IMG/VR virus record: IMGVR_UViG_3300009537_000089
Span: 1 to 33,297 of that record
Direction: 5' to 3' (one strand)
Length of the DNA stretch: 33,297 nucleotides
From: a virus
Part shown: in pieces, positions 1,836-21,867 of the stretch
Numbering within the stretch: position 1 is the stretch's first letter
Layout of the letters: every line of letters begins with the position of its first letter
Made by a program: the position numbers and the translations under genes
The notes under the pieces: generated by a model
What the model was told of the DNA's origin: nothing
Seen by the model: only the letters and a program-made list of their open reading frames with translations
Database searches by the model: none

Positions 1836-3968
1836 TTAATATAAAGTCATTGTATATGTTAAACGCCCCTCGCGTTTAGGGTCAGTTGGCCACGGACTTG
1901 GGACGTGTTTTGCCAATACCCAAATTGGTTCAGTATCAGGTCCTAACGGGTCTTTGTTAATAGTTTCAACAATGGTTAAACTTTGTATATCAGTAACAGC
2001 AGTAACAGCTTCAATAAATTCAGTAATAGTTACAGTTTGTATATCAGTTTTAATAATTTCGCCAACCTCAGCGTCATTAGCTTGCACGCTTTCAGGTTCA
2101 ACCAAGCTACGCAACAACTCAATTAAACCATAACGCCTTGTTGTAATTAATCTAACATTATAACTAAACTCTGTTGGTGTTAATGTTTGAAAAACTACTT
2201 TATGTATAATAAAATCAAGGTCAAAATCACGCTCAACACTATCAACATTAATTACCATTCCAGTCCTTAAACCACTAGTATAAGTTTTAAAATTAATATC
2301 ACTAACTTCACTTGCATAAGTTTCCAGTTCAGCAATAGCCCGTTGCCTAGCAACATCTAAATCCTCAATAGTAGTATCCCTAATAATTTTCTCGCGTAAG
2401 CCAAATCGTGCAATACTGACACTATCACTACTAATAGCCAATACAGGTATTTTAGGGTTGCCACTAAATCTTATTTCATCAGCGTCAGCTAACGGGTTTT
2501 CCCACCTTATAATTTTTTCCTCAAAATTAAATAATACATCTTTTGTAGTAAAATCATCTATGTTATCAATACCAACTGTTTGGCTAACAAACCCACTACC
2601 AGTGTCTAACTCAACTGTTAAATTGTCAAACTTATACGGCAAATTAAAACTTTTACTATTATCGCCTGATACTGTAATTATATCAGTAAAAGTCGCGCCA
2701 TCAAATTCACCGCCCCTAACTAACACTTGGTTAGCTATTTGCGTGCCGTCAATTTTACGCTTTAAACTTTTATAAACATAATTACCACTGTCATCTTCCA
2801 AATCATAAGGCGCACTAACAGTAAACTTAGGGAAGAAGTGCAAATCCTTTTCAGGGTCAACAAACCACTCATATTTAACTATATTACTTAACCGCCTTAA
2901 ACAAGCAGTAATTGGCACTTGATTAAACACTATCTTATCTATTACAAAGTCGCTAATAACATTATCGGTAGTAAACCCGCTTGGCGCATAATTATCAATA
3001 ATGTCTTCAATAATTTCCTTAATAGTTAGCCCCTCATAACTTTCAGCAACAAGCCTATTTTCAAGGTCAAACTGGTAATCACTTAACTTAACATTGTAAA
3101 CAACACCTTTGGCAGCCTCAACAGTTTCGCCTAAATCAGTAATACTACCGCCAAATATTATAGTGCTACCGTCCTTAATTTGTAGCTCGTCATCAACTGC
3201 TGGTTTATAATCCCTATCGCCATAATACCTAGTCATAAATTCAGCCCTATCAACTTGGCTTGTTAAGTTTTGTGATACTTTAAGCGTTGGCCAGTTAATA
3301 ACATCACTAATATCTTCTAGGTTGCCAGCATTAGCACTTAAAAAAGTAATTTCAGTTTGCGTTAATTCACGCTCGTATATTTGCATATCATCTAGCTGGC
3401 CATTAAAATATTCGCTAGCATTACCGCGTTGCGCCAACCATAAATCGCCAATAAAGTTGCGCCAGTTATCGTCACTAAAACTACCACTGCCAACCAAATT
3501 ACCGTCAATATAAAACTTATTTTCAAGGTCTTCGGCAATAACAGCAACACAATGATACCATTGCCCAGCGCTAATTGCGGTTGGATATAAACTAGTATCA
3601 TTGTTGCCAGTATCGTCAAAAATCTCGACATTGCCCGCGTTAATACGCACACCCCAGCCATTACTAGTATTTAAAAACTTATTAACTAACATTTGTTGGC
3701 CAGTAGTTACAGTGGCCTTAAACCAAAAGCTTATACTAACAACGCCAATATCGTAATTGTGCGTATTTTGGACTGCTTGATTGCTTCCATTAAAATTTAA
3801 AGCATTGCCAAACTTTCCAGCTACCCAACTTGGGGTGTTTATCAAAGTGCCGTTATACTCATTTTTAGTCCTGTCAAGTAAACTGCTTCCTGTTGTTTGG
3901 TTAAAATCATAATAAGTGATTAAATCTTTGAATACTTTATTTACAGTAATCATATTATATAAAGTCAA
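1836..3968 (-). CDS. Distal tail / baseplate protein with N-terminal LamG-like (concanavalin-A-like lectin) domain (710 aa)
   Basis: N-terminus YYDFNQTTGSSLLDRTKNEYNGTLINTPSWVAGKFGNALNFNGSNQ...ISFWFK...GWGVRI...GQWYHCV is the classic LamG pattern. First gene after the tape measure, overlapping its stop by 14 nt. Confidence 0.6.
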   Translation of the reverse strand: MTLYNMITVNKVFKDLITYYDFNQTTGSSLLDRTKNEYNGTLINTPSWVAGKFGNALNFNGSNQAVQNTHNYDIGVVSISFWFKATVTTGQQMLVNKFLNTSNGWGVRINAGNVEIFDDTGNNDTSLYPTAISAGQWYHCVAVIAEDLENKFYIDGNLVGSGSFSDDNWRNFIGDLWLAQRGNASEYFNGQLDDMQIYERELTQTEITFLSANAGNLEDISDVINWPTLKVSQNLTSQVDRAEFMTRYYGDRDYKPAVDDELQIKDGSTIIFGGSITDLGETVEAAKGVVYNVKLSDYQFDLENRLVAESYEGLTIKEIIEDIIDNYAPSGFTTDNVISDFVIDKIVFNQVPITACLRRLSNIVKYEWFVDPEKDLHFFPKFTVSAPYDLEDDSGNYVYKSLKRKIDGTQIANQVLVRGGEFDGATFTDIITVSGDNSKSFNLPYKFDNLTVELDTGSGFVSQTVGIDNIDDFTTKDVLFNFEEKIIRWENPLADADEIRFSGNPKIPVLAISSDSVSIARFGLREKIIRDTTIEDLDVARQRAIAELETYASEVSDINFKTYTSGLRTGMVINVDSVERDFDLDFIIHKVVFQTLTPTEFSYNVRLITTRRYGLIELLRSLVEPESVQANDAEVGEIIKTDIQTVTITEFIEAVTAVTDIQSLTIVETINKDPLGPDTEPIWVLAKHVPSPWPTDPKREGRLTYTMTLY

Positions 3969-5841
3969 GTTTTTGGTTAGGCCTTAATGCGTTCATAATA
4001 CCTTGTTGCACTTTTTCTATTAAATCCTCACCACTAATGTCGCCATTAACAGTTATATTTACAACAGTGCCTAGGCTTCCCATTTTATTTAATGGTATTA
4101 CAGCCTCAGGTCCAGCTTCGCCTATCTCAGCAATAGTTGGCGCAGTTACAATACCGCCCTTGGCTAACCTTGGTATATTAGGCAAATTAGGTAACGCTTT
4201 GCCAAATTTCCCAGCTTTATTTTTAATTTCATTAATTAAATTTATAAATTTATTAATTTTATCTATTATAAAGTTAATAATATTCCTAACAGTGTTTTTT
4301 ATAACTTCCGCAGCGCCAACAGCTACATTTTTAACACCCTCCCAAAGTGCTTTCCAAGCTGCTACAACTGGGTCTTTTACTTCCTTAAATATCTTTTTTA
4401 TAAACAAAACACCAGTATTAATAGCATTGCCAATCTTTTCCCAAATAGGCGTAAAAAAGTCTATTATACTTTGCCAAATTTCAGTCCAAATTTGCAATAT
4501 AAAATTCAAAGTTTCCTCAATAAACACTTTAAGTTCTTCCCAAATAATTCTAAAAAAGTCTGATACAGCTTGCCAAGTTTCACGCCATTGCGGGAATAAT
4601 GTATCAAGCAACATAACAAAAGCGCCAAGCACTAATGCTATCCAAATTTTAATAACAAGTAATATAGCGTCAAAAATCATCTTAAAAAATTCACTCATAG
4701 CAGTAAAAACAGTTATAGCCGTCTGTTTAATACTATTCCAAACGCCACCTAAAAAATCAGCAATAAAAGTCCAAATTTCAAGGGCTTTGCCTTTTATAAA
4801 TTCCCACTTAGCAACTAACAATACAATGGCTGCTATTACAGCTATAATGGCAATAACAATTAAACCAATAGGACTTAACAATAAAGTAAAACCTGTAATA
4901 ACTGCTGGCAATACTAATCCTAACGCGCCAACAACAGTAACCAATATTGCGAGCCCCGAAGCAACAGCAACAATGGTTTTTATAAGTTCTGGGTTTTCTT
5001 GCGCCCAAGCTGCAATTTTATTTATAACTGGTAATAACTTTTTTAATAAACTGTCAATAATTGGTAAAAATGCTTTACCAATAGCTTCTTTAGCTTCAAT
5101 TATAGTAGCGTTAAGTTCCTGTTGTCGCCTAATAAAACTGTCATTGTTTTCCTCAAAACCATTAATAGCGTCAGCAGATTGTTTTGTTGCCTGTATTAAC
5201 AAGGCCTCAGCTTGCACGGCACTAGCAATAGCGGGGTCTAAGTCCTTAAAACTTTGCCCAACCTCTAATAGCCCAGCGTCAAGCGCAGTAGCTTCCAATG
5301 CAGTAATTCTAGCGTCAATACCAAAAGCCCTAAGCGGTTCACTACTACCAACCAAACCCGACCTAAAAGCTTCTAAAACACGGCTAGGGTCTTCGTCATT
5401 AAACGCTGCAATTTTATTTGCCAGCACAATAGTTTCTTTTGACAAATCCTTAGCTTTATCACGGCTAAGACCCATTGGCACTAATAAATCCTGTAAACCC
5501 GCAGCCATAGATATAATTTCAGTTTTAGCGCTAGGCATTTCTTTTCTAACCTCATCAACAAAATTTAACATTTCGTCAGTGCTTTCACCAAACACTGTTT
5601 TAAACTTAGCCATTGCACCCTCAGCGACCGCAGCCTTTTGGACAGTGTCATTAATACCCAAACCAATGGCAGTCAATGCAGCCGTGCCACCAATAGCCAG
5701 CTTAGTAAAAGTTGGCTTCATTTTTTGCAGTTTACCACTAAAACCTTTTAATTGCGCACTGGCTTGGTCTTTTAATGATAAAATGATTTGTAAGTCGCGC
5801 TCGGCCATATTATTTATGTTTCCTTTGTTCTGCTTTTTCAA
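3955..5841 (-). CDS. Tail tape measure protein (628 aa)
   Basis: N-terminal core (AVAEGAMAKFKTVFGES...AAGLQDLLVPMGL...LRAFGIDA) resembles TP901-type tape-measure cores. Long helical/hydrophobic middle; follows the chaperone pair. ATG at 5808 (MAERDLQ...) is an alternative start just after the upstream stop. Confidence 0.85.
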   Translation of the reverse strand: MKKQNKGNINNMAERDLQIILSLKDQASAQLKGFSGKLQKMKPTFTKLAIGGTAALTAIGLGINDTVQKAAVAEGAMAKFKTVFGESTDEMLNFVDEVRKEMPSAKTEIISMAAGLQDLLVPMGLSRDKAKDLSKETIVLANKIAAFNDEDPSRVLEAFRSGLVGSSEPLRAFGIDARITALEATALDAGLLEVGQSFKDLDPAIASAVQAEALLIQATKQSADAINGFEENNDSFIRRQQELNATIIEAKEAIGKAFLPIIDSLLKKLLPVINKIAAWAQENPELIKTIVAVASGLAILVTVVGALGLVLPAVITGFTLLLSPIGLIVIAIIAVIAAIVLLVAKWEFIKGKALEIWTFIADFLGGVWNSIKQTAITVFTAMSEFFKMIFDAILLVIKIWIALVLGAFVMLLDTLFPQWRETWQAVSDFFRIIWEELKVFIEETLNFILQIWTEIWQSIIDFFTPIWEKIGNAINTGVLFIKKIFKEVKDPVVAAWKALWEGVKNVAVGAAEVIKNTVRNIINFIIDKINKFINLINEIKNKAGKFGKALPNLPNIPRLAKGGIVTAPTIAEIGEAGPEAVIPLNKMGSLGTVVNITVNGDISGEDLIEKVQQGIMNALRPNQKLDFI

Positions 5842-6016
5842 GCAAATTTTTTATGCTAACAATATGCAAGTAATTAGTTAAAGTAAAATAGTCCTCATCA
5901 TCAATTTCGCTTGGCAACCAGCCATAACGGTCGCTTAATGCTTCGTAAATAACAATCTTGTCAGGTGTTTTTTTACCTTGCAACATTAACCGCCAATCAG
6001 TCAGTTGGTCTTGCAA
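5810..6016 (-). CDS. Tail assembly chaperone, -1 frame extension (gpT-like part, probably made only as a G-T fusion)
   Basis: The ORF lies in the -1 frame relative to 6022..6372 and stays open back through the A9 run. Its listed start is TTG. Position is between the tail tube and tape measure genes. Confidence 0.6.
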   Translation of the reverse strand: MQDQLTDWRLMLQGKKTPDKIVIYEALSDRYGWLPSEIDDEDYFTLTNYLHIVSIKNLLEKAEQRKHK

Positions 6017-16119: not shown

Positions 16120-16722
16120 TTATATTAATGTTTTATTAGTTTTAAAAGCTTCCTGTAAAATATGGTAGCCTAACGCGGGGTTTACTAAATTACGCAATAA
16201 CTGCCGTTTATCCTTAACATTATAATTTTTTAAGTTAAAACCATAAACTTCATTACGGCCAACAATTTGTCTATGTTTGCGCTCATCTTCAAGTTTAATA
16301 GGTGTAATCCAAAAATTAGTCCAAAACAAGTGGCGCTCTAATTTTTGCGCTGGTATTAACGGCTCATAATAAGGCACTACATTTTCAACAACCCACTTGC
16401 AATCAGCAAAATGTTTAAGCAATATTATTTCCTCATAAAGCTTCATATCAGGATATTTAGCCTTATACATTCCGCTAGTTACAGCCATTCGCCTAATATC
16501 ACTATGCGTTGGACAAGGCGGGCTACTCCAAATAAAATCAAACTTATCAAAATGCTTTAATAAATACTCGTGCGCGTCAGCAATAACAATTTCATCGTTA
16601 GGGAAGTAATCGCTATAAATATGCGCTATTTTTTCGTCATTTTCAACTGCGGTTATTTGGTGTTTATCGCCCCAAAGGCGTCTATTGCCACCAATACCAG
16701 CATATAAATTTAATATTTTCAT
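16120..16722 (-). CDS. DNA (cytosine-5) methyltransferase, unusually small (200 aa)
   Basis: Motif I LYAGIGG, motif II-like AVENDE, motif IV SSPPCPTHS, motif VI VVENV and motif X-like LVNPALGYHIL, in canonical order and spacing. Confidence 0.7.
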   Translation of the reverse strand: MKILNLYAGIGGNRRLWGDKHQITAVENDEKIAHIYSDYFPNDEIVIADAHEYLLKHFDKFDFIWSSPPCPTHSDIRRMAVTSGMYKAKYPDMKLYEEIILLKHFADCKWVVENVVPYYEPLIPAQKLERHLFWTNFWITPIKLEDERKHRQIVGRNEVYGFNLKNYNVKDKRQLLRNLVNPALGYHILQEAFKTNKTLI

Positions 16723-16730
16723 ATCCTTGA

Positions 16731-16802
16731 GCGCTAGGGTCGGTTTTGCACCGCCTCTACTGACTTGGGAAGCCAGCGTGCAACTAATTACACTACTAGC
16801 GC
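16731..16802 (-). tRNA. tRNA-like element (possible tRNA-Gly, anticodon CCC; non-canonical T arm, no encoded CCA)
   Basis: Minus-strand fold: 7-bp acceptor stem GCGCTAG/CTAGCGC, U8, D stem GTGT/GCAC, anticodon stem CTGGC/GTCAG and loop TTCCCAA (U33, A37). The T arm forms only if shifted 1 nt (GGCGG/CCGAC with one G-A mismatch, loop TGCAAAA). It is a GC-rich island filling the intergenic gap exactly. Confidence 0.45.
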
Positions 16803-17531
16803 TTATTTATTTATTTTACTTTTCAACTTAACGATTGGTATAGTTTTAGCAACTTCTGGGTCAATTTTATTGCCATTGTTATCCCAAATTTTAAGGTCTT
16901 TTTTATTAGGGTATCTATCATAGATTTTAAATCTAGCGGTAGCCATTAACTCTTGTTGTTCCTGTTTACTACAAATAAATTTAAGATAACAAAAATTTAG
17001 TCCGTGTAATATGCTAAGTTTATCACCAAATATCTTTTTTAAGTATTTAGGGCTAGTCTTTTTATAGCGGTGATATAAGCTAATAGGGTGTATAAGGCCA
17101 ACACCTTTTATATAAGGGAATTTACATTCAATAGTGCCAATATAATAATAACCAGCAGCTTGGTAGATAGTGCCAACCAACCCTTGGAAGCCCGCTGCAT
17201 AAGTATAGAGATACTTTACTTTATGGTCGTATTTTTTAATGACCTTTGCAGTTAAGTTAAGGAATTGACTAGCACTATTCTTTGGCGCGTCATCTACAAC
17301 AAAAAACCTGTTAAGTTCTAAGTAGTCAGCAGTAGTGCCACTGCCAAACAATTTTTTAGGTGTTTGTGCTGGCACTATTCCCCAGCCCCAAACTGCTAGG
17401 CCAATAAACTTATTGCCCTCAAACGCAGCCATAAAGTATTTGCTACTATTAGGCATACTAGGCGCGTGAGGGTGTAATTTGCAATATTCAGACGCTTGTT
17501 GTTTGGTTACTGGCCGTATTATCATAATCAA
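16803..17531 (-). CDS. GNAT/acyltransferase-fold protein, Mom-like candidate DNA-modification enzyme (242 aa)
   Basis: Pattern CKLHPHAP...FIGLAVWGWG...YLELNRFFV...PKNSASQFL...YLYTYA...GTIYQAAGYYYIG resembles the Mom/GNAT-like phage family as I remember it. Lies next to a ParB-like gene and a methylase gene. Confidence 0.45.
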   Translation of the reverse strand: MIMIIRPVTKQQASEYCKLHPHAPSMPNSSKYFMAAFEGNKFIGLAVWGWGIVPAQTPKKLFGSGTTADYLELNRFFVVDDAPKNSASQFLNLTAKVIKKYDHKVKYLYTYAAGFQGLVGTIYQAAGYYYIGTIECKFPYIKGVGLIHPISLYHRYKKTSPKYLKKIFGDKLSILHGLNFCYLKFICSKQEQQELMATARFKIYDRYPNKKDLKIWDNNGNKIDPEVAKTIPIVKLKSKINK

Positions 17532-18084
17532 TTATAATTTTATATAAAGCCTTGTTAATATCAACATCGTGCTTTTTTAATATTTTTTTAATTTGTATTA
17601 TTTGTGTTTCTTTTAATATAAAAGTAATTTGCTTTAAACCTTTTAACTCCTTTGGCACTGTTTCCTTAAACGCGTCCGCCCAATCATCGTCAGTTGGCTT
17701 ATCACCAAATATGTTGGCTAATTCAAGCTTATCCCAACCACTATCAGCTAATAAGTTTTTATCAAACAATTTAAGTAATTCGTCACTAAAACCACCCTCA
17801 ATAGTGCTTTTATTATCGGTTAATAAATATTCCTCTTTTTCTTTTTCGCTTAAACCAGTAACTTTATTAACCATAATATCTTTAACACCTAACGCTTTTA
17901 ATGCTTTTAAACGCCCGTGGCCACCTAAAATGACATTATTTTCGTCAACTATTATTTTGGCAAGGTAACCACTCCTATTTATACTGCCTTTTATTAAATC
18001 AACATTGTGCAACTTAGGATTTTTAGGGTGTAATTTTAATTTACTAATATCAATTTGTATAAATTTGTCTTTGACTTTTTTCAT
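17488..18084 (-). CDS. ParB-like (ParB/Srx N-terminal) domain protein (198 aa)
   Basis: IDISKLKLHPKNPKLHN...INRSGYLAKIIVDENNVILGGHGRLKALKALG matches the ParB-like nuclease-domain signature. Confidence 0.75.
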   Translation of the reverse strand: MKKVKDKFIQIDISKLKLHPKNPKLHNVDLIKGSINRSGYLAKIIVDENNVILGGHGRLKALKALGVKDIMVNKVTGLSEKEKEEYLLTDNKSTIEGGFSDELLKLFDKNLLADSGWDKLELANIFGDKPTDDDWADAFKETVPKELKGLKQITFILKETQIIQIKKILKKHDVDINKALYKIIIDYDNTASNQTTSV

Positions 18085-19027: not shown

Positions 19028-20656
19028 TTATTTAGTAGCGCGGGTGTGTATAATCCTTTTGCCGTCAAAAATATACCTAAACCCGTCTAAATATATAATT
19101 TGTTCAAGGTCGTGTTTTATAAATAACAGCTTTAAAAACTCCTCGCGTTGCCTTAACGCCCTGTATTTAACATCGCCAGTTGATTTGTGTATAGCATTAA
19201 CATCACGCGTATAAGCTATTTTCCAATCAAGCTCCTTAAACCTTAAATAAAAGTCAGTGTGTTCACCACTTATTTTAAACTGGTTATCAAACTGTATATC
19301 ATTAAAAACTTCACGCCTAAACAAAGCAAAATTTAAAATACATTCAGTTAGCTTATATTTTAAGCCCTTATCAACCTTAATCCACTTATTGCCGTCGCTT
19401 TTATGGTATAACCTTTTGCCACGCCTCCACCACTTATGTTCATAGTGCATTTCGTTTTGGCCGTCAAATAACAACCCGCCAACAACACCAATATCTTCGT
19501 TATGCTCCAATACTTGAATAAATTTACTAATATCAGTATTTTCCGTAAATATAAAATCGTCATCAATTAACAATACATAAGGCCGTCTGCACTTTTCTAT
19601 TAAAAAATTACGGCACTCGGCAAGCCCTGTATCATAAGGCATATTATAACAAACAGGGTTCTTTTTTAAACCACGCTTGTTTAGGCGTTGCCATAAATCA
19701 ACATAGTAATTATAATCAAACCCCTCATCATCGTCAGCAAACATAATATTGGCCATAGGGTAGCGTTTAGCAATACTAAACAAAAGCTTTTCAACACTTT
19801 CCCGTCGCTTCATTGTTTTAAATATAATATCAATATCTTGCATTTCGCTACTATCAAAAATATCAACACGCCCTTGCATATCGACAACAGTGTGTATACC
19901 AAACCGCTCATAAAACCTTTTGCGGTCGCTTTTACGCGTCCTGTAATATAAATAGTTGCTATAACTTTGCCTGTTTTTAATTTGTATAGCTGGTTTATGC
20001 TCAACAATACAATCAGGCGTAAACGCTACTTTATAACCAGCGCGCTTAAAATCAATAAAAAAACTACTATGCTCATAAGCTACCTTGATTTGTTCGTCCC
20101 ACGGCACTTTTTTAACAGCCTTAGTCCTAGCTATAAAAAAATTAAAAGTAATATCGCAAGGCTTATACTTAAACCCTTTGTAGCTATTATAGCCGTTAAG
20201 TTCAAGCGGTGTGTAAACAAACCTATGCGGGTCGCGGTCGTTAATAAGCCCTTGATAATTTTTAATTACCTCACCCTCAATAATGCGCCCACCAATTAAA
20301 TCAAAGCCCCTATTGTTATCCAAAAAATTAACCATTTTGTCAATGTTTGCCTGTATACTATATTTAAAATCGTCATCACCAATAAGCAAATATTTTGTTT
20401 TAACCTTTTGCACTAACGCATTACGGCCAACACAAAGCCCACTATCATAAGGCAAAAAATGGACTTGGTGTCCAAGCTTTTCAACCTTTTTATAAAAATT
20501 ACGCTTTTCAAGTGGCATATCCTTTTTAGGGTTTTCGTAGCTATCATCAGCTATAAGTATTTTAATGTCAGGATAAACTTCAAGTAAACTATCAACGCAA
20601 GTATATAAATACTCATCGCGTAAAAATGTTTTAATTATTGCGGTAACATTCTTCAT
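19028..20656 (-). CDS. Tandem two-domain family-2 (GT-A) glycosyltransferase (542 aa)
   Basis: Two repeats of the GT2 signature: AIIKTFLRDEYL...ILIADDS...LLIGDDDF and IIFKTMKRRESV...IMFADDDEG...VLLIDDDF (DxD motifs). Confidence 0.8.
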   Translation of the reverse strand: MKNVTAIIKTFLRDEYLYTCVDSLLEVYPDIKILIADDSYENPKKDMPLEKRNFYKKVEKLGHQVHFLPYDSGLCVGRNALVQKVKTKYLLIGDDDFKYSIQANIDKMVNFLDNNRGFDLIGGRIIEGEVIKNYQGLINDRDPHRFVYTPLELNGYNSYKGFKYKPCDITFNFFIARTKAVKKVPWDEQIKVAYEHSSFFIDFKRAGYKVAFTPDCIVEHKPAIQIKNRQSYSNYLYYRTRKSDRKRFYERFGIHTVVDMQGRVDIFDSSEMQDIDIIFKTMKRRESVEKLLFSIAKRYPMANIMFADDDEGFDYNYYVDLWQRLNKRGLKKNPVCYNMPYDTGLAECRNFLIEKCRRPYVLLIDDDFIFTENTDISKFIQVLEHNEDIGVVGGLLFDGQNEMHYEHKWWRRGKRLYHKSDGNKWIKVDKGLKYKLTECILNFALFRREVFNDIQFDNQFKISGEHTDFYLRFKELDWKIAYTRDVNAIHKSTGDVKYRALRQREEFLKLLFIKHDLEQIIYLDGFRYIFDGKRIIHTRATK

Positions 20657-21213
20657 TTTTTAGGTTTTAATTTTTTAGCTATAACGCGTATAACAAGCGG
20701 GTTTTCACTTTTATAAACGGCCATATCGCGTCCCTGTTTGAAGTATAATATCTTAAAATTATTTTTAATTAACTGATGTAAAAGCCAATTCCCTCTAATA
20801 TAATTGCGGTCGTGGTTAGGCCAAATCAACGGCTTATCACCTAACGCCCGTGCCTCTGCCATAAAATAACCTTGGCTTTTTTCAATTAAGTATTTAATTT
20901 CCTTATTACTAATAGCGTGCAAGAAAAAACGGCTATAAACAACCTTGCCCCCGTCCCACTGTATATCAGGGCTACTAAAACTACTTTTATAAAAATAACA
21001 TTTGTGCGCATTTTCAGGTTTAATAGCGCTATCAATACCAATAACAGTGTGTCCGCTTTTAGCAAAGTAATAACTATCACGGCCATTACCGCAACCAAAG
21101 TCAATAATTGTTTTGCGCTTTTTAAGGTAGTGTGTTTGGCAAAACTCCGCAAAATCACTTGGCGCGCTTATATGCGGTTTTTTATAAAACGCGTCCCAAT
21201 ATTTTTTATTCAT
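20653..21213 (-). CDS. Class I SAM-dependent methyltransferase (186 aa from ATG 21213)
   Basis: Motif I IIDFGCGNGRDSYYFAKSGHTVIGID. The start at 21213 (MNKKYW...) is preferred because the longer ORF runs deep into the LicD-like gene. Confidence 0.75.
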   Translation of the reverse strand: MNKKYWDAFYKKPHISAPSDFAEFCQTHYLKKRKTIIDFGCGNGRDSYYFAKSGHTVIGIDSAIKPENAHKCYFYKSSFSSPDIQWDGGKVVYSRFFLHAISNKEIKYLIEKSQGYFMAEARALGDKPLIWPNHDRNYIRGNWLLHQLIKNNFKILYFKQGRDMAVYKSENPLVIRVIAKKLKPKK

Positions 21214-21781
21214 AAACCATTTTAATTTTTTTAATAAAACTTTTATCAATGGCTGGGCTACTACTGTCCCAACGCCAGTTTTTGTCAGGTAAACGCCAAG
21301 TCTTGCCATACCATAACTCAACATAACGCTCATATTGCTTTGGCACTTTAAACAAATTGCCACCTAAATTAGACAATACTTGCTCATCAAATAAATCTGC
21401 TGGGAATACCATAGGTATAATATCTTTTAAACCATTACGGCCACCATTAGCCCAAACAGCATTCCAGCGTTTATTACCAAGCTTATAATGCAAAAACAGG
21501 TCAATCTTAACGCCATAACGCGCAAAAGCTATTTCCATTCCGCAAGCACGGCTACCAAATATATGGCGCACACCAAACCCAGCTTCAAACATTTTGTTTA
21601 ATAACCTAAAATCAAAATGCTCCTCGTTAATACCAATATCAATATCCAAATCGTGACCAATAAAATTGCCCTCGCGCACTGCGCCTAAACAAGTGCCAGC
21701 CTCAAGCCAATAAGGCGTTTTGTAATCTTCTAATACTTCAGTAAAGTCAATTAGATTTTTTAATGCGTCTTTTTGGTTCAT
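21206..21781 (-). CDS. LicD-family (fukutin-like) phosphotransferase candidate (191 aa from ATG 21781)
   Basis: YWLEAGTCLGAVREGNFIGHDLDIDIGI matches the LicD GT(L)LGAVR...D-x-D motif. The longer ORF start would include the upstream terminator hairpin. Confidence 0.65.
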   Translation of the reverse strand: MNQKDALKNLIDFTEVLEDYKTPYWLEAGTCLGAVREGNFIGHDLDIDIGINEEHFDFRLLNKMFEAGFGVRHIFGSRACGMEIAFARYGVKIDLFLHYKLGNKRWNAVWANGGRNGLKDIIPMVFPADLFDEQVLSNLGGNLFKVPKQYERYVELWYGKTWRLPDKNWRWDSSSPAIDKSFIKKIKMVYE

Positions 21782-21804
21782 TTGTTTTAATGTTAATGTT
21801 TTGT

Positions 21805-21826
21805 AAAAAAGTCCCGCAGTGCGGAC
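21805..21826 (-). terminator. Intrinsic terminator (short GC stem + U6)
   Basis: Minus strand reads GTCCGCACTGCGGGAC-TTTTTTAC: GTCC/GGAC plus GC/GC pairs with one bulged G. Lies between the stop of the 95-aa gene and the LicD-like start. Confidence 0.55.
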
Positions 21827-21867
21827 ACCTAGCAAGCACTGTTTCAGCATTACAGGTTTTGCACTTT

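Follow-up and report, generated by a model that had tools for sequence, protein, structure and literature searches.

A conserved tRNA-Gly-like RNA beside the Mom-like genes of viruses, probably a dedicated glycyl donor

The Mom protein of bacteriophage Mu is a GNAT enzyme that uses Gly-tRNAGly as its donor and places glycine on the N6 of adenine in double-stranded DNA, and the resulting adduct rearranges to N6-carbamoylmethyl-adenine (Silva et al., Nat Commun 2026, PMC13219725; preprint 10.1101/2023.03.24.534169). All three tRNAGly isoacceptors of E. coli work in this reaction, and Gly-tRNAAla is rejected. Host Gly-tRNAGly was identified as the co-substrate of Mom only recently, and the published picture is one in which the phage scavenges the host pool (PMC13219725). 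The same paper mentions that GNAT toxins specific for Gly-tRNAGly exist. Neither the 2023 preprint nor the 2026 paper mentions tRNA-like RNAs adjacent to Mom genes.

Such an RNA has been described in the ssrA islands of Dehalococcoides, where a tRNA-Gly-like 'pseudo-tRNA' is found in a mom homologue (McMurdie et al., BMC Genomics 2011, PMC3146451). It has a conserved DCC triplet within a 5-nt loop, and a ParB-domain gene lies just before mom. No function was proposed for it, and the Mom protein itself was taken at the time for a methylase-type protection factor.

Natural glycine tRNAs that serve outside translation are known from staphylococci. In S. aureus and S. epidermidis, the non-proteogenic tRNAGly species NP1-NP3 feed FmhB, FemA and FemB (Rietmeyer et al., NAR 2020, PMC7826273). 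Their T loop reads UGC where UUC is usual, and EF-Tu has little affinity for their T stem. Charging is carried out by the ordinary glycyl-tRNA synthetase (GlyRS).

The window studied here is an entire virus record of 33,297 bases (IMG/VR IMGVR_UViG_3300009537_000089) with about 35% GC and nearly all of its genes on the minus strand. It encodes a portal protein fused to a Mu-F-like domain, a large terminase, a Rad52-like protein and a ParB-like protein. The features that concern the Mom-like gene and the RNA next to it are listed here in the order in which they are read.

17488..18084, minus strand: ParB-like gene (PHROG 620, ParB-like, 2e-29), overlapping the start of the Mom-like gene
16803..17531, minus strand: Mom-like GNAT gene (Pfam PF25680, 1e-32; PHROG 1384; PDB 8bv8)
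16729..16802, minus strand: tRNA-Gly-like RNA (ARAGORN; Rfam RF00005; minimum free energy cloverleaf; family model R1)
16796..16802, minus strand: 5' strand of the acceptor stem, pairing with 16731..16737 as read from the sequence
16778..16793, minus strand: D arm with a 4-bp stem and an 8-nt loop, AAUUAGUU, in which A18-G19 replaces G18-G19
16765..16771, minus strand: anticodon loop UUCCCAA, with CCC at 16769..16767 and A37 at 16766
16738..16755, minus strand: T arm with stem GGCGG/CCG(A)CC, bulged A at 16740 and loop UGCAAAA (U54 G55 C56)
16120..16722, minus strand: short C5-DNA-methylase-like gene encoding 200 aa (Pfam PF00145, N-terminal 77 residues only)

Nucleotides 1-72 of the RNA correspond to 16802..16731, U73 to 16730 and C74 to 16729. 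A sequence-only reading of this DNA had placed a 72-nt cloverleaf-like element exactly here. Nucleotide 1 (16802) is the base directly after the TAA stop codon (16803-16805) of the Mom-like ORF, and nucleotide 72 (16731) lies 8 nt before the ATG (16722) of the next ORF. That reading had also described the element as GC-rich, and its GC content is indeed 55% compared to about 34% in the flanks. The 7-bp acceptor stem, U8, A14, the 4-bp D stem, G26, the 5-bp anticodon stem, the loops UUCCCAA and UGCAAAA, and the lack of an encoded CCA at the 3' end are all as it had them. ARAGORN calls tRNA-Gly(CCC) at 16729..16802 on the minus strand, the sole tRNA in the 33.3-kb genome. The Rfam tRNA model RF00005 gives a marginal score of 30.7 bits, barely above the gathering score of 29 (E = 0.011 for the whole window). 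The minimum free energy structure of the element is a cloverleaf (-31.5 kcal/mol, z = -4.0 versus shuffles), and the family model R1 described below scores it at 79.4 bits, the window itself being one of the seed sequences.

The T arm has to be drawn differently from the first proposal, which used a G-A mismatch and left a spare C. This register pairs 81.6% of the T-stem cells across the family, compared to 98.4% when a bulged A is allowed, and it was rejected. The covariance-model alignment places the T arm as a 5-bp stem with the bulge at 16740. The bulged A is conserved in low-GC relatives, and relative L002 has compensating T-stem changes around it, ACAGG/CCU(A)GU. Compared to a canonical elongator tRNA-Gly (RF00005), the window RNA shares the cloverleaf, a 4-nt variable loop, the GlyRS identity nucleotides and the anticodon CCC. 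It differs in having G55 for U55 (U54-G55-C56 rather than U54-U55-C56), A18 for G18 (A18-G19 rather than G18-G19), and a bulge in what would otherwise be an uninterrupted 5-bp T stem.

The protein encoded upstream of the RNA is homologous to Mu Mom. It matches Pfam PF25680 at 113.7 bits (cut-off 27.1; 1e-32) and the Mu Mom structure PDB 8bv8 with E = 6e-15. Its gene probably starts at the ATG at 17525, judging from the alignment of homologues. Residues R75 and S88 align with the catalytic R111 and S124 of Mu Mom when the shifted numbering of the deposited chain is taken into account, and in alignment A1 the arginine is invariant and the serine nearly so. Since the enzymes are homologous and the catalytic Arg and Ser are conserved, the window protein presumably performs the same glycyl-tRNA-dependent modification of adenine N6 in double-stranded DNA.

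Upstream of the Mom-like gene, a ParB homologue is found on the same strand in 72 of the 134 element-bearing loci. The ParB-like gene, the Mom-like gene and the tRNA-Gly-like RNA recur together as a trio, in the same order also in the Dehalococcoides ssrA islands, and one possibility is that the ParB-like protein contributes DNA targeting. The downstream neighbour of the element is not conserved among element-bearing loci. A C5-methylase-like homologue adjoins the element in only two loci, and another ORF comes next in L001-L003. The C5-methylase-like gene, whose ribosome-binding site directly follows the RNA, is outside the conserved module. Its 200-aa product is a methyltransferase-like protein that is either miniature or truncated, and related proteins of about 195 aa are encoded on other viral contigs (L004-L007).

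Several other observations were made in this genome. Just upstream of the ParB-Mom module, the region 19028-21850 on the minus strand encodes a 542-aa family-2 glycosyltransferase, a SAM-methyltransferase-like protein and a LicD-family protein, which may constitute a second modification or surface-sugar module. Two ORFs of 628 and 614 aa, at 3955-5841 (minus) and 4037-5881 (plus), are nearly exactly antisense to each other, and one is probably a compositional shadow of the other. A nucleotide search with the 1.6-kb region against cultured phages returned only weak methyltransferase matches in Flavobacterium phages, and the exact first 26 nt of the window RNA are absent from all viral contigs searched.

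Homologues of the Mom-like protein with 28-79% identity were taken from viral and metagenome contigs, and a cloverleaf-like element is present at nearly every locus with sequence past the Mom C-terminus. The covariance model R1, built from a MAFFT alignment of 21 elements, matches all 37 of the Mom loci that have sequence past the gene, with scores of 52-85 bits at or overlapping the Mom 3' end. In the MAFFT alignment, 95.6% of the cells in paired columns form pairs, compared to about 40% when the partner strand is slid. Compensatory two-sided changes of the kind that the sequence-only reading suggested looking for occur at 16 of the 21 base pairs, and none of 500 shuffles is as good. Two further alignments, A3 and A4, were fitted to the model and hence lean towards it. 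The window copy carries the NCCA loop, the GCG...CGC-U acceptor end and the GGCGG-UGCAA..-CCGACC T arm that characterize members of this family.

The linkage between the RNA and Mom also holds when the search is run in reverse. An 18-base T-arm motif matched more than 120 viral contigs, and 100 of these were scanned with R1. Because this search fixes the T-arm sequence, T-arm statistics from the RNA-first set are biased. Full elements, 96 in total, were recovered from 94 of the 100 contigs. A Mom HMM match is located just upstream and on the same strand for 91 of them, and the other five lie within 260 nt of a contig end, such that Mom is present at 91 of 91 testable loci. Matches to the motif in prokaryote genomes are mostly due to chance (9 true elements among 100 loci). 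Mom accompanies none of the 91 chance loci, and a scan of prokaryote genomes with the Mom alignment gave no matches. The identity between elements tracks the identity between Mom proteins (Mantel r = 0.51, equalled by none of 2000 permutations). Thus, the RNA and the Mom protein diverge together.

Most members of the family escape standard tRNA finders. ARAGORN detects one of seven and then none of 19 relative loci, and none of 20 relatives reaches the Rfam tRNA cut-off, which leaves the window copy as the only member above it. The arrangement relative to Mom also varies, with about one-eighth of the members located 5' of the Mom frame or within its start rather than at its 3' end. In 13 cultured phages, Mu included, there is no element within 1.5 kb of the Mom gene.

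Four full members are found in Bacillota metagenome-assembled genomes (MAGs) at L193 7775-7848, L218 6494-6567, L265 7144-7217 and L255 3943-4017, with scores of 65-76 bits. Pfam searches and profile-profile comparison of their flanks identified no Mom, and these copies may be orphans or act in trans. One of these genomes holds a separate Mom gene that has its own element 13 nt upstream (L297 2122-2195). A different tRNA-like sequence occurs in Methylophilales phage Melnitz-3 (L053 500-573), about 930 nt upstream of a Mom homologue and inside a hypothetical coding sequence. ARAGORN calls it tRNA-Trp(CCA) and R1 scores it at 33 bits. It lacks the GCG/CGC-U acceptor end and is therefore no clear member of the family. 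The RNAs of high-GC Mom relatives with about 28% identity (L014-L027) have a perfect 5-bp T stem without the bulge, an encoded CCA, and a conserved A opposite G7 at the base of the acceptor stem.

The nucleotides that the family retains were counted in 25 distinct elements found via the Mom protein, a set that is unbiased with respect to the RNA. In the tRNA-identity literature, the bacterial GlyRS identity set comprises G1-C72, C2-G71, G3-C70, U73, C35 and C36, and the window copy has all of these. The family counts for these positions and the adjacent A37 are as follows.

G1-C72: kept in 25 of 25
C2-G71: kept in 25 of 25
G3-C70: kept in 24 of 25
U73: kept in 24 of 25
C35-C36: kept in 25 of 25
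A37: kept in 25 of 25

Other positions of the anticodon arm are free to change. Position 33 is U in seven elements, A in nine, G in six and C in three, and the wobble base is U in 11, C in nine, A in four and G in one. Nucleotides 32 and 38 are Watson-Crick complementary in 22 of the 25, so the anticodon arm is really a 6-bp stem with a 5-nt loop, NNCCA. The window copy has U33 and formally a 7-nt loop, and its U32 and A38 can pair to give the same 5-nt loop. Some members have anticodon loops of 5, 6 or 8 nt, or reduced D arms. The RNA retains an L-shape, with an elbow that is altered but kept: a D-loop AG (A18-G19) is combined with G55 in 15 elements and GG with U55 in seven, with three mixed, and the switch between these two states has occurred in at least three Mom subclades while G19 and C56 are retained. 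The family thus keeps the nucleotides read by GlyRS and gives up those needed for decoding. The first description of the RNA as an atypical tRNA-Gly or tRNA mimic, and not a standard tRNA, holds. 'Degenerate' is the wrong word for it, since its deviations are conserved and covarying and therefore selected.

On balance, the element is likely to be reserved for the adjacent Mom-like enzyme as a glycyl donor, and it probably takes no part in translation. In more than 100 other viral sequences, an RNA with the same oddities comes after the Mom gene, which suggests that it is probably the enzyme's own glycine carrier. The Mom-like neighbour had been recognized in the sequence-only reading, where the RNA was not connected to the glycyl-tRNA-dependent chemistry of Mom. 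In the proposed pathway, the RNA would be transcribed together with the ParB-like and Mom genes from one strand, excised by host RNase P and 3' processing enzymes, and completed by the host CCA-adding enzyme. Host GlyRS would then charge it with glycine by reading G1-C72, C2-G71, G3-C70, U73, C35 and C36. In double-stranded phage DNA, the Mom-like GNAT would then place the glycyl group on adenine N6, where rearrangement to N6-carbamoylmethyl-adenine is expected to block restriction.

The affinity of EF-Tu for a tRNA is set by three T-stem base pairs, 51-63 and 50-64 among them, and the bulged A sits between these two pairs. Its position relative to the pairs that EF-Tu reads argues that the bulge could permit evasion of the factor. 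Together with the G55/A18 elbow, the 32-38 pair, and the unfixed position 33 and wobble base, it might keep the charged RNA off both EF-Tu and the ribosome. The donor pool would thus be reserved for DNA modification, and translation would not be drained. U73 is a feature confined to bacterial tRNAGly, where it guards Gly-tRNAGly against the deacylase DTD (PMC6097841), a protection that matters most for donors that EF-Tu does not hold. A private tRNA is not required for the chemistry itself, since the three ordinary isoacceptors of E. coli all serve Mu Mom and 13 cultured phages with Mom genes lack the element within 1.5 kb.

A stronger version of this proposal is that the RNA is an orthogonal, co-evolved partner of its enzyme. 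The Mom subfamily would read the bulged A and the A18:G55 combination and use host tRNAGly poorly, and EF-Tu and the ribosome would reject the RNA. This version is tentative and rather improbable. If it is true, such viruses would keep an aminoacyl channel to themselves, for DNA chemistry alone, the frequent overlap between Mom frame and RNA would couple synthesis of the enzyme to release of its co-substrate, and the RNA would be the first tRNA encoded by a virus to serve a defined enzyme rather than translation.

Phages often carry tRNAs, and the window RNA could be an ordinary decoding tRNA-Gly(CCC) that supplements GGG translation, with its place beside Mom being incidental or due to a shared late operon. 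Its U33, 7-nt loop, A37 and complete GlyRS identity set, and the tRNA calls by both ARAGORN and Rfam, speak for this explanation. GGG accounts for just 63 of the 619 glycine codons of the phage (10%), however, and the rest of the family does not behave in this manner. Position 33 is unconserved, nucleotides 32 and 38 are paired, loop length and wobble base vary, and none of 20 relatives passes the Rfam cut-off. A bulge conserved within the T-stem pairs read by EF-Tu and G55 in place of U55 are also unexpected in an elongator, and the near-absolute linkage to Mom in both search directions would be a coincidence. An ordinary decoding role is therefore unlikely.

The window copy has U33, a formal 7-nt loop, A37 and a proper CCC anticodon, and it might also decode GGG. 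A dual role of this sort, in which a weak but working GGG decoder is also preferred by Mom, would be consistent with the acceptance of normal decoding tRNAGly by Mu Mom, and could apply to this copy in particular because it retains U33 and alone exceeds the Rfam cut-off. It is the most tRNA-like member of the family, yet it has the bulged A, G55 and A18 in common with relatives that are clearly non-decoding, and its U32-A38 pair can likewise shrink the loop to 5 nt. These shared features make the combination of roles quite improbable.

Alternatively, the tRNA shape might serve structure or processing only, either by recruiting RNase P/Z between cistrons or by stabilizing or regulating the mom mRNA, and the RNA might never be aminoacylated. 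The element exactly fills the intercistronic gap of the window, and there is no terminator-like site between the Mom-like gene and the next gene. Among 105 distinct elements, the Mom frame stops inside 14 and reads through 81 (95 of 105; for example, L001 998-1071 and L002 1542-1615). Gene callers therefore bury the RNA in Mom coding sequences, and RNase P cleavage would strip such mom mRNAs of their stop codon. However, the frame is open through the element in 43 of 59 cases where 34 are expected, a modest excess among kin that are not independent, and selection for an open Mom frame is not claimed. RNase P/Z-type processing requires only an acceptor/T minihelix, which leaves the invariant C35, C36, A37, U73 and G1-C2-G3 of the GlyRS set unexplained, and the members located 5' of Mom do not fit a role at its 3' boundary. 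A purely structural function has a correspondingly low probability.

Least probable is a role as decoy or sponge, against either a host tRNA-targeting defence or a Gly-tRNAGly-specific GNAT toxin, or else an origin as what remains of a tRNA attachment site. Such toxins are known, and when defence nucleases cut host tRNAs, those of a phage can take their place, but neither idea predicts strict Mom linkage and co-divergence, and an attachment remnant should match a host tRNA and not drift in its stems with compensatory changes, nor does an integrase adjoin the element in the window as annotated by profile. Attachment-site, decoy and pure-punctuation readings are thus ranked low. From the roles listed in the sequence-only reading, 'cofactor' is favoured, whereas RNase P/Z punctuation and the decoy leave the invariant GlyRS nucleotides without a reason.

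A full-text literature search found no paper that joins the Mom-adjacent RNA to the chemistry of Mom. The RNA was noted in 2011 (PMC3146451) and the tRNA dependence of Mom is described in PMC13219725. What is new is a tRNA that apparently serves a Mom system and not translation. The Mom genes of a large branch with few cultured representatives are accompanied by a glycine tRNA, in which the marks for charging are kept and those for decoding are dropped. This RNA offers a direct handle on tRNA recognition by Mom. It also poses a problem for annotation, as most members are missed by standard tRNA finders and hidden by gene callers within Mom coding sequences.

Mu and the window virus have homologous Mom enzymes and differ in the supply of the co-substrate. 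Mu has no tRNA of its own and uses host isoacceptors, whereas the window gene and a large uncultured subfamily travel with a deviant tRNA-Gly.

The Dehalococcoides pseudo-tRNA, compared here by its description, resembles the window RNA in having a tRNA-Gly-like cloverleaf within a Mom and ParB trio. It resides within mom itself, in the first 150 bp of the gene, on integrative islands of a bacterium, whereas the window RNA is located 3' of mom in a lytic-type phage genome. A copy from a Dehalococcoidia MAG (L239) matches the family model at 67 bits. If these RNAs are glycyl carriers, this would account for the pseudo-tRNA that has been unexplained since 2011.

The staphylococcal non-proteogenic tRNAGly species provide a functional parallel. 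Their T-loop UGC matches that of the window loop UGCAAAA, and their glycine is set aside for a GNAT-fold aminoacyl-transferase and kept out of translation, as is proposed by analogy for the window RNA. The means of weakening the T stem would differ. The staphylococcal tRNAs use weak A49-U65, U50-A64 and A51-U63 pairs, whereas the T stem of the window RNA is G-C rich with a bulge. They are also cellular, restricted to staphylococci, and deliver glycine to a peptidoglycan precursor, whereas the window RNA is phage-borne and its proposed acceptor is DNA. The window RNA is thus an analogue, and not a member, of this group. If it is a glycyl donor, it would be the second known natural tRNA set aside for non-ribosomal chemistry, after the staphylococcal cell-wall tRNAGly, with no earlier example from a virus or from DNA modification.
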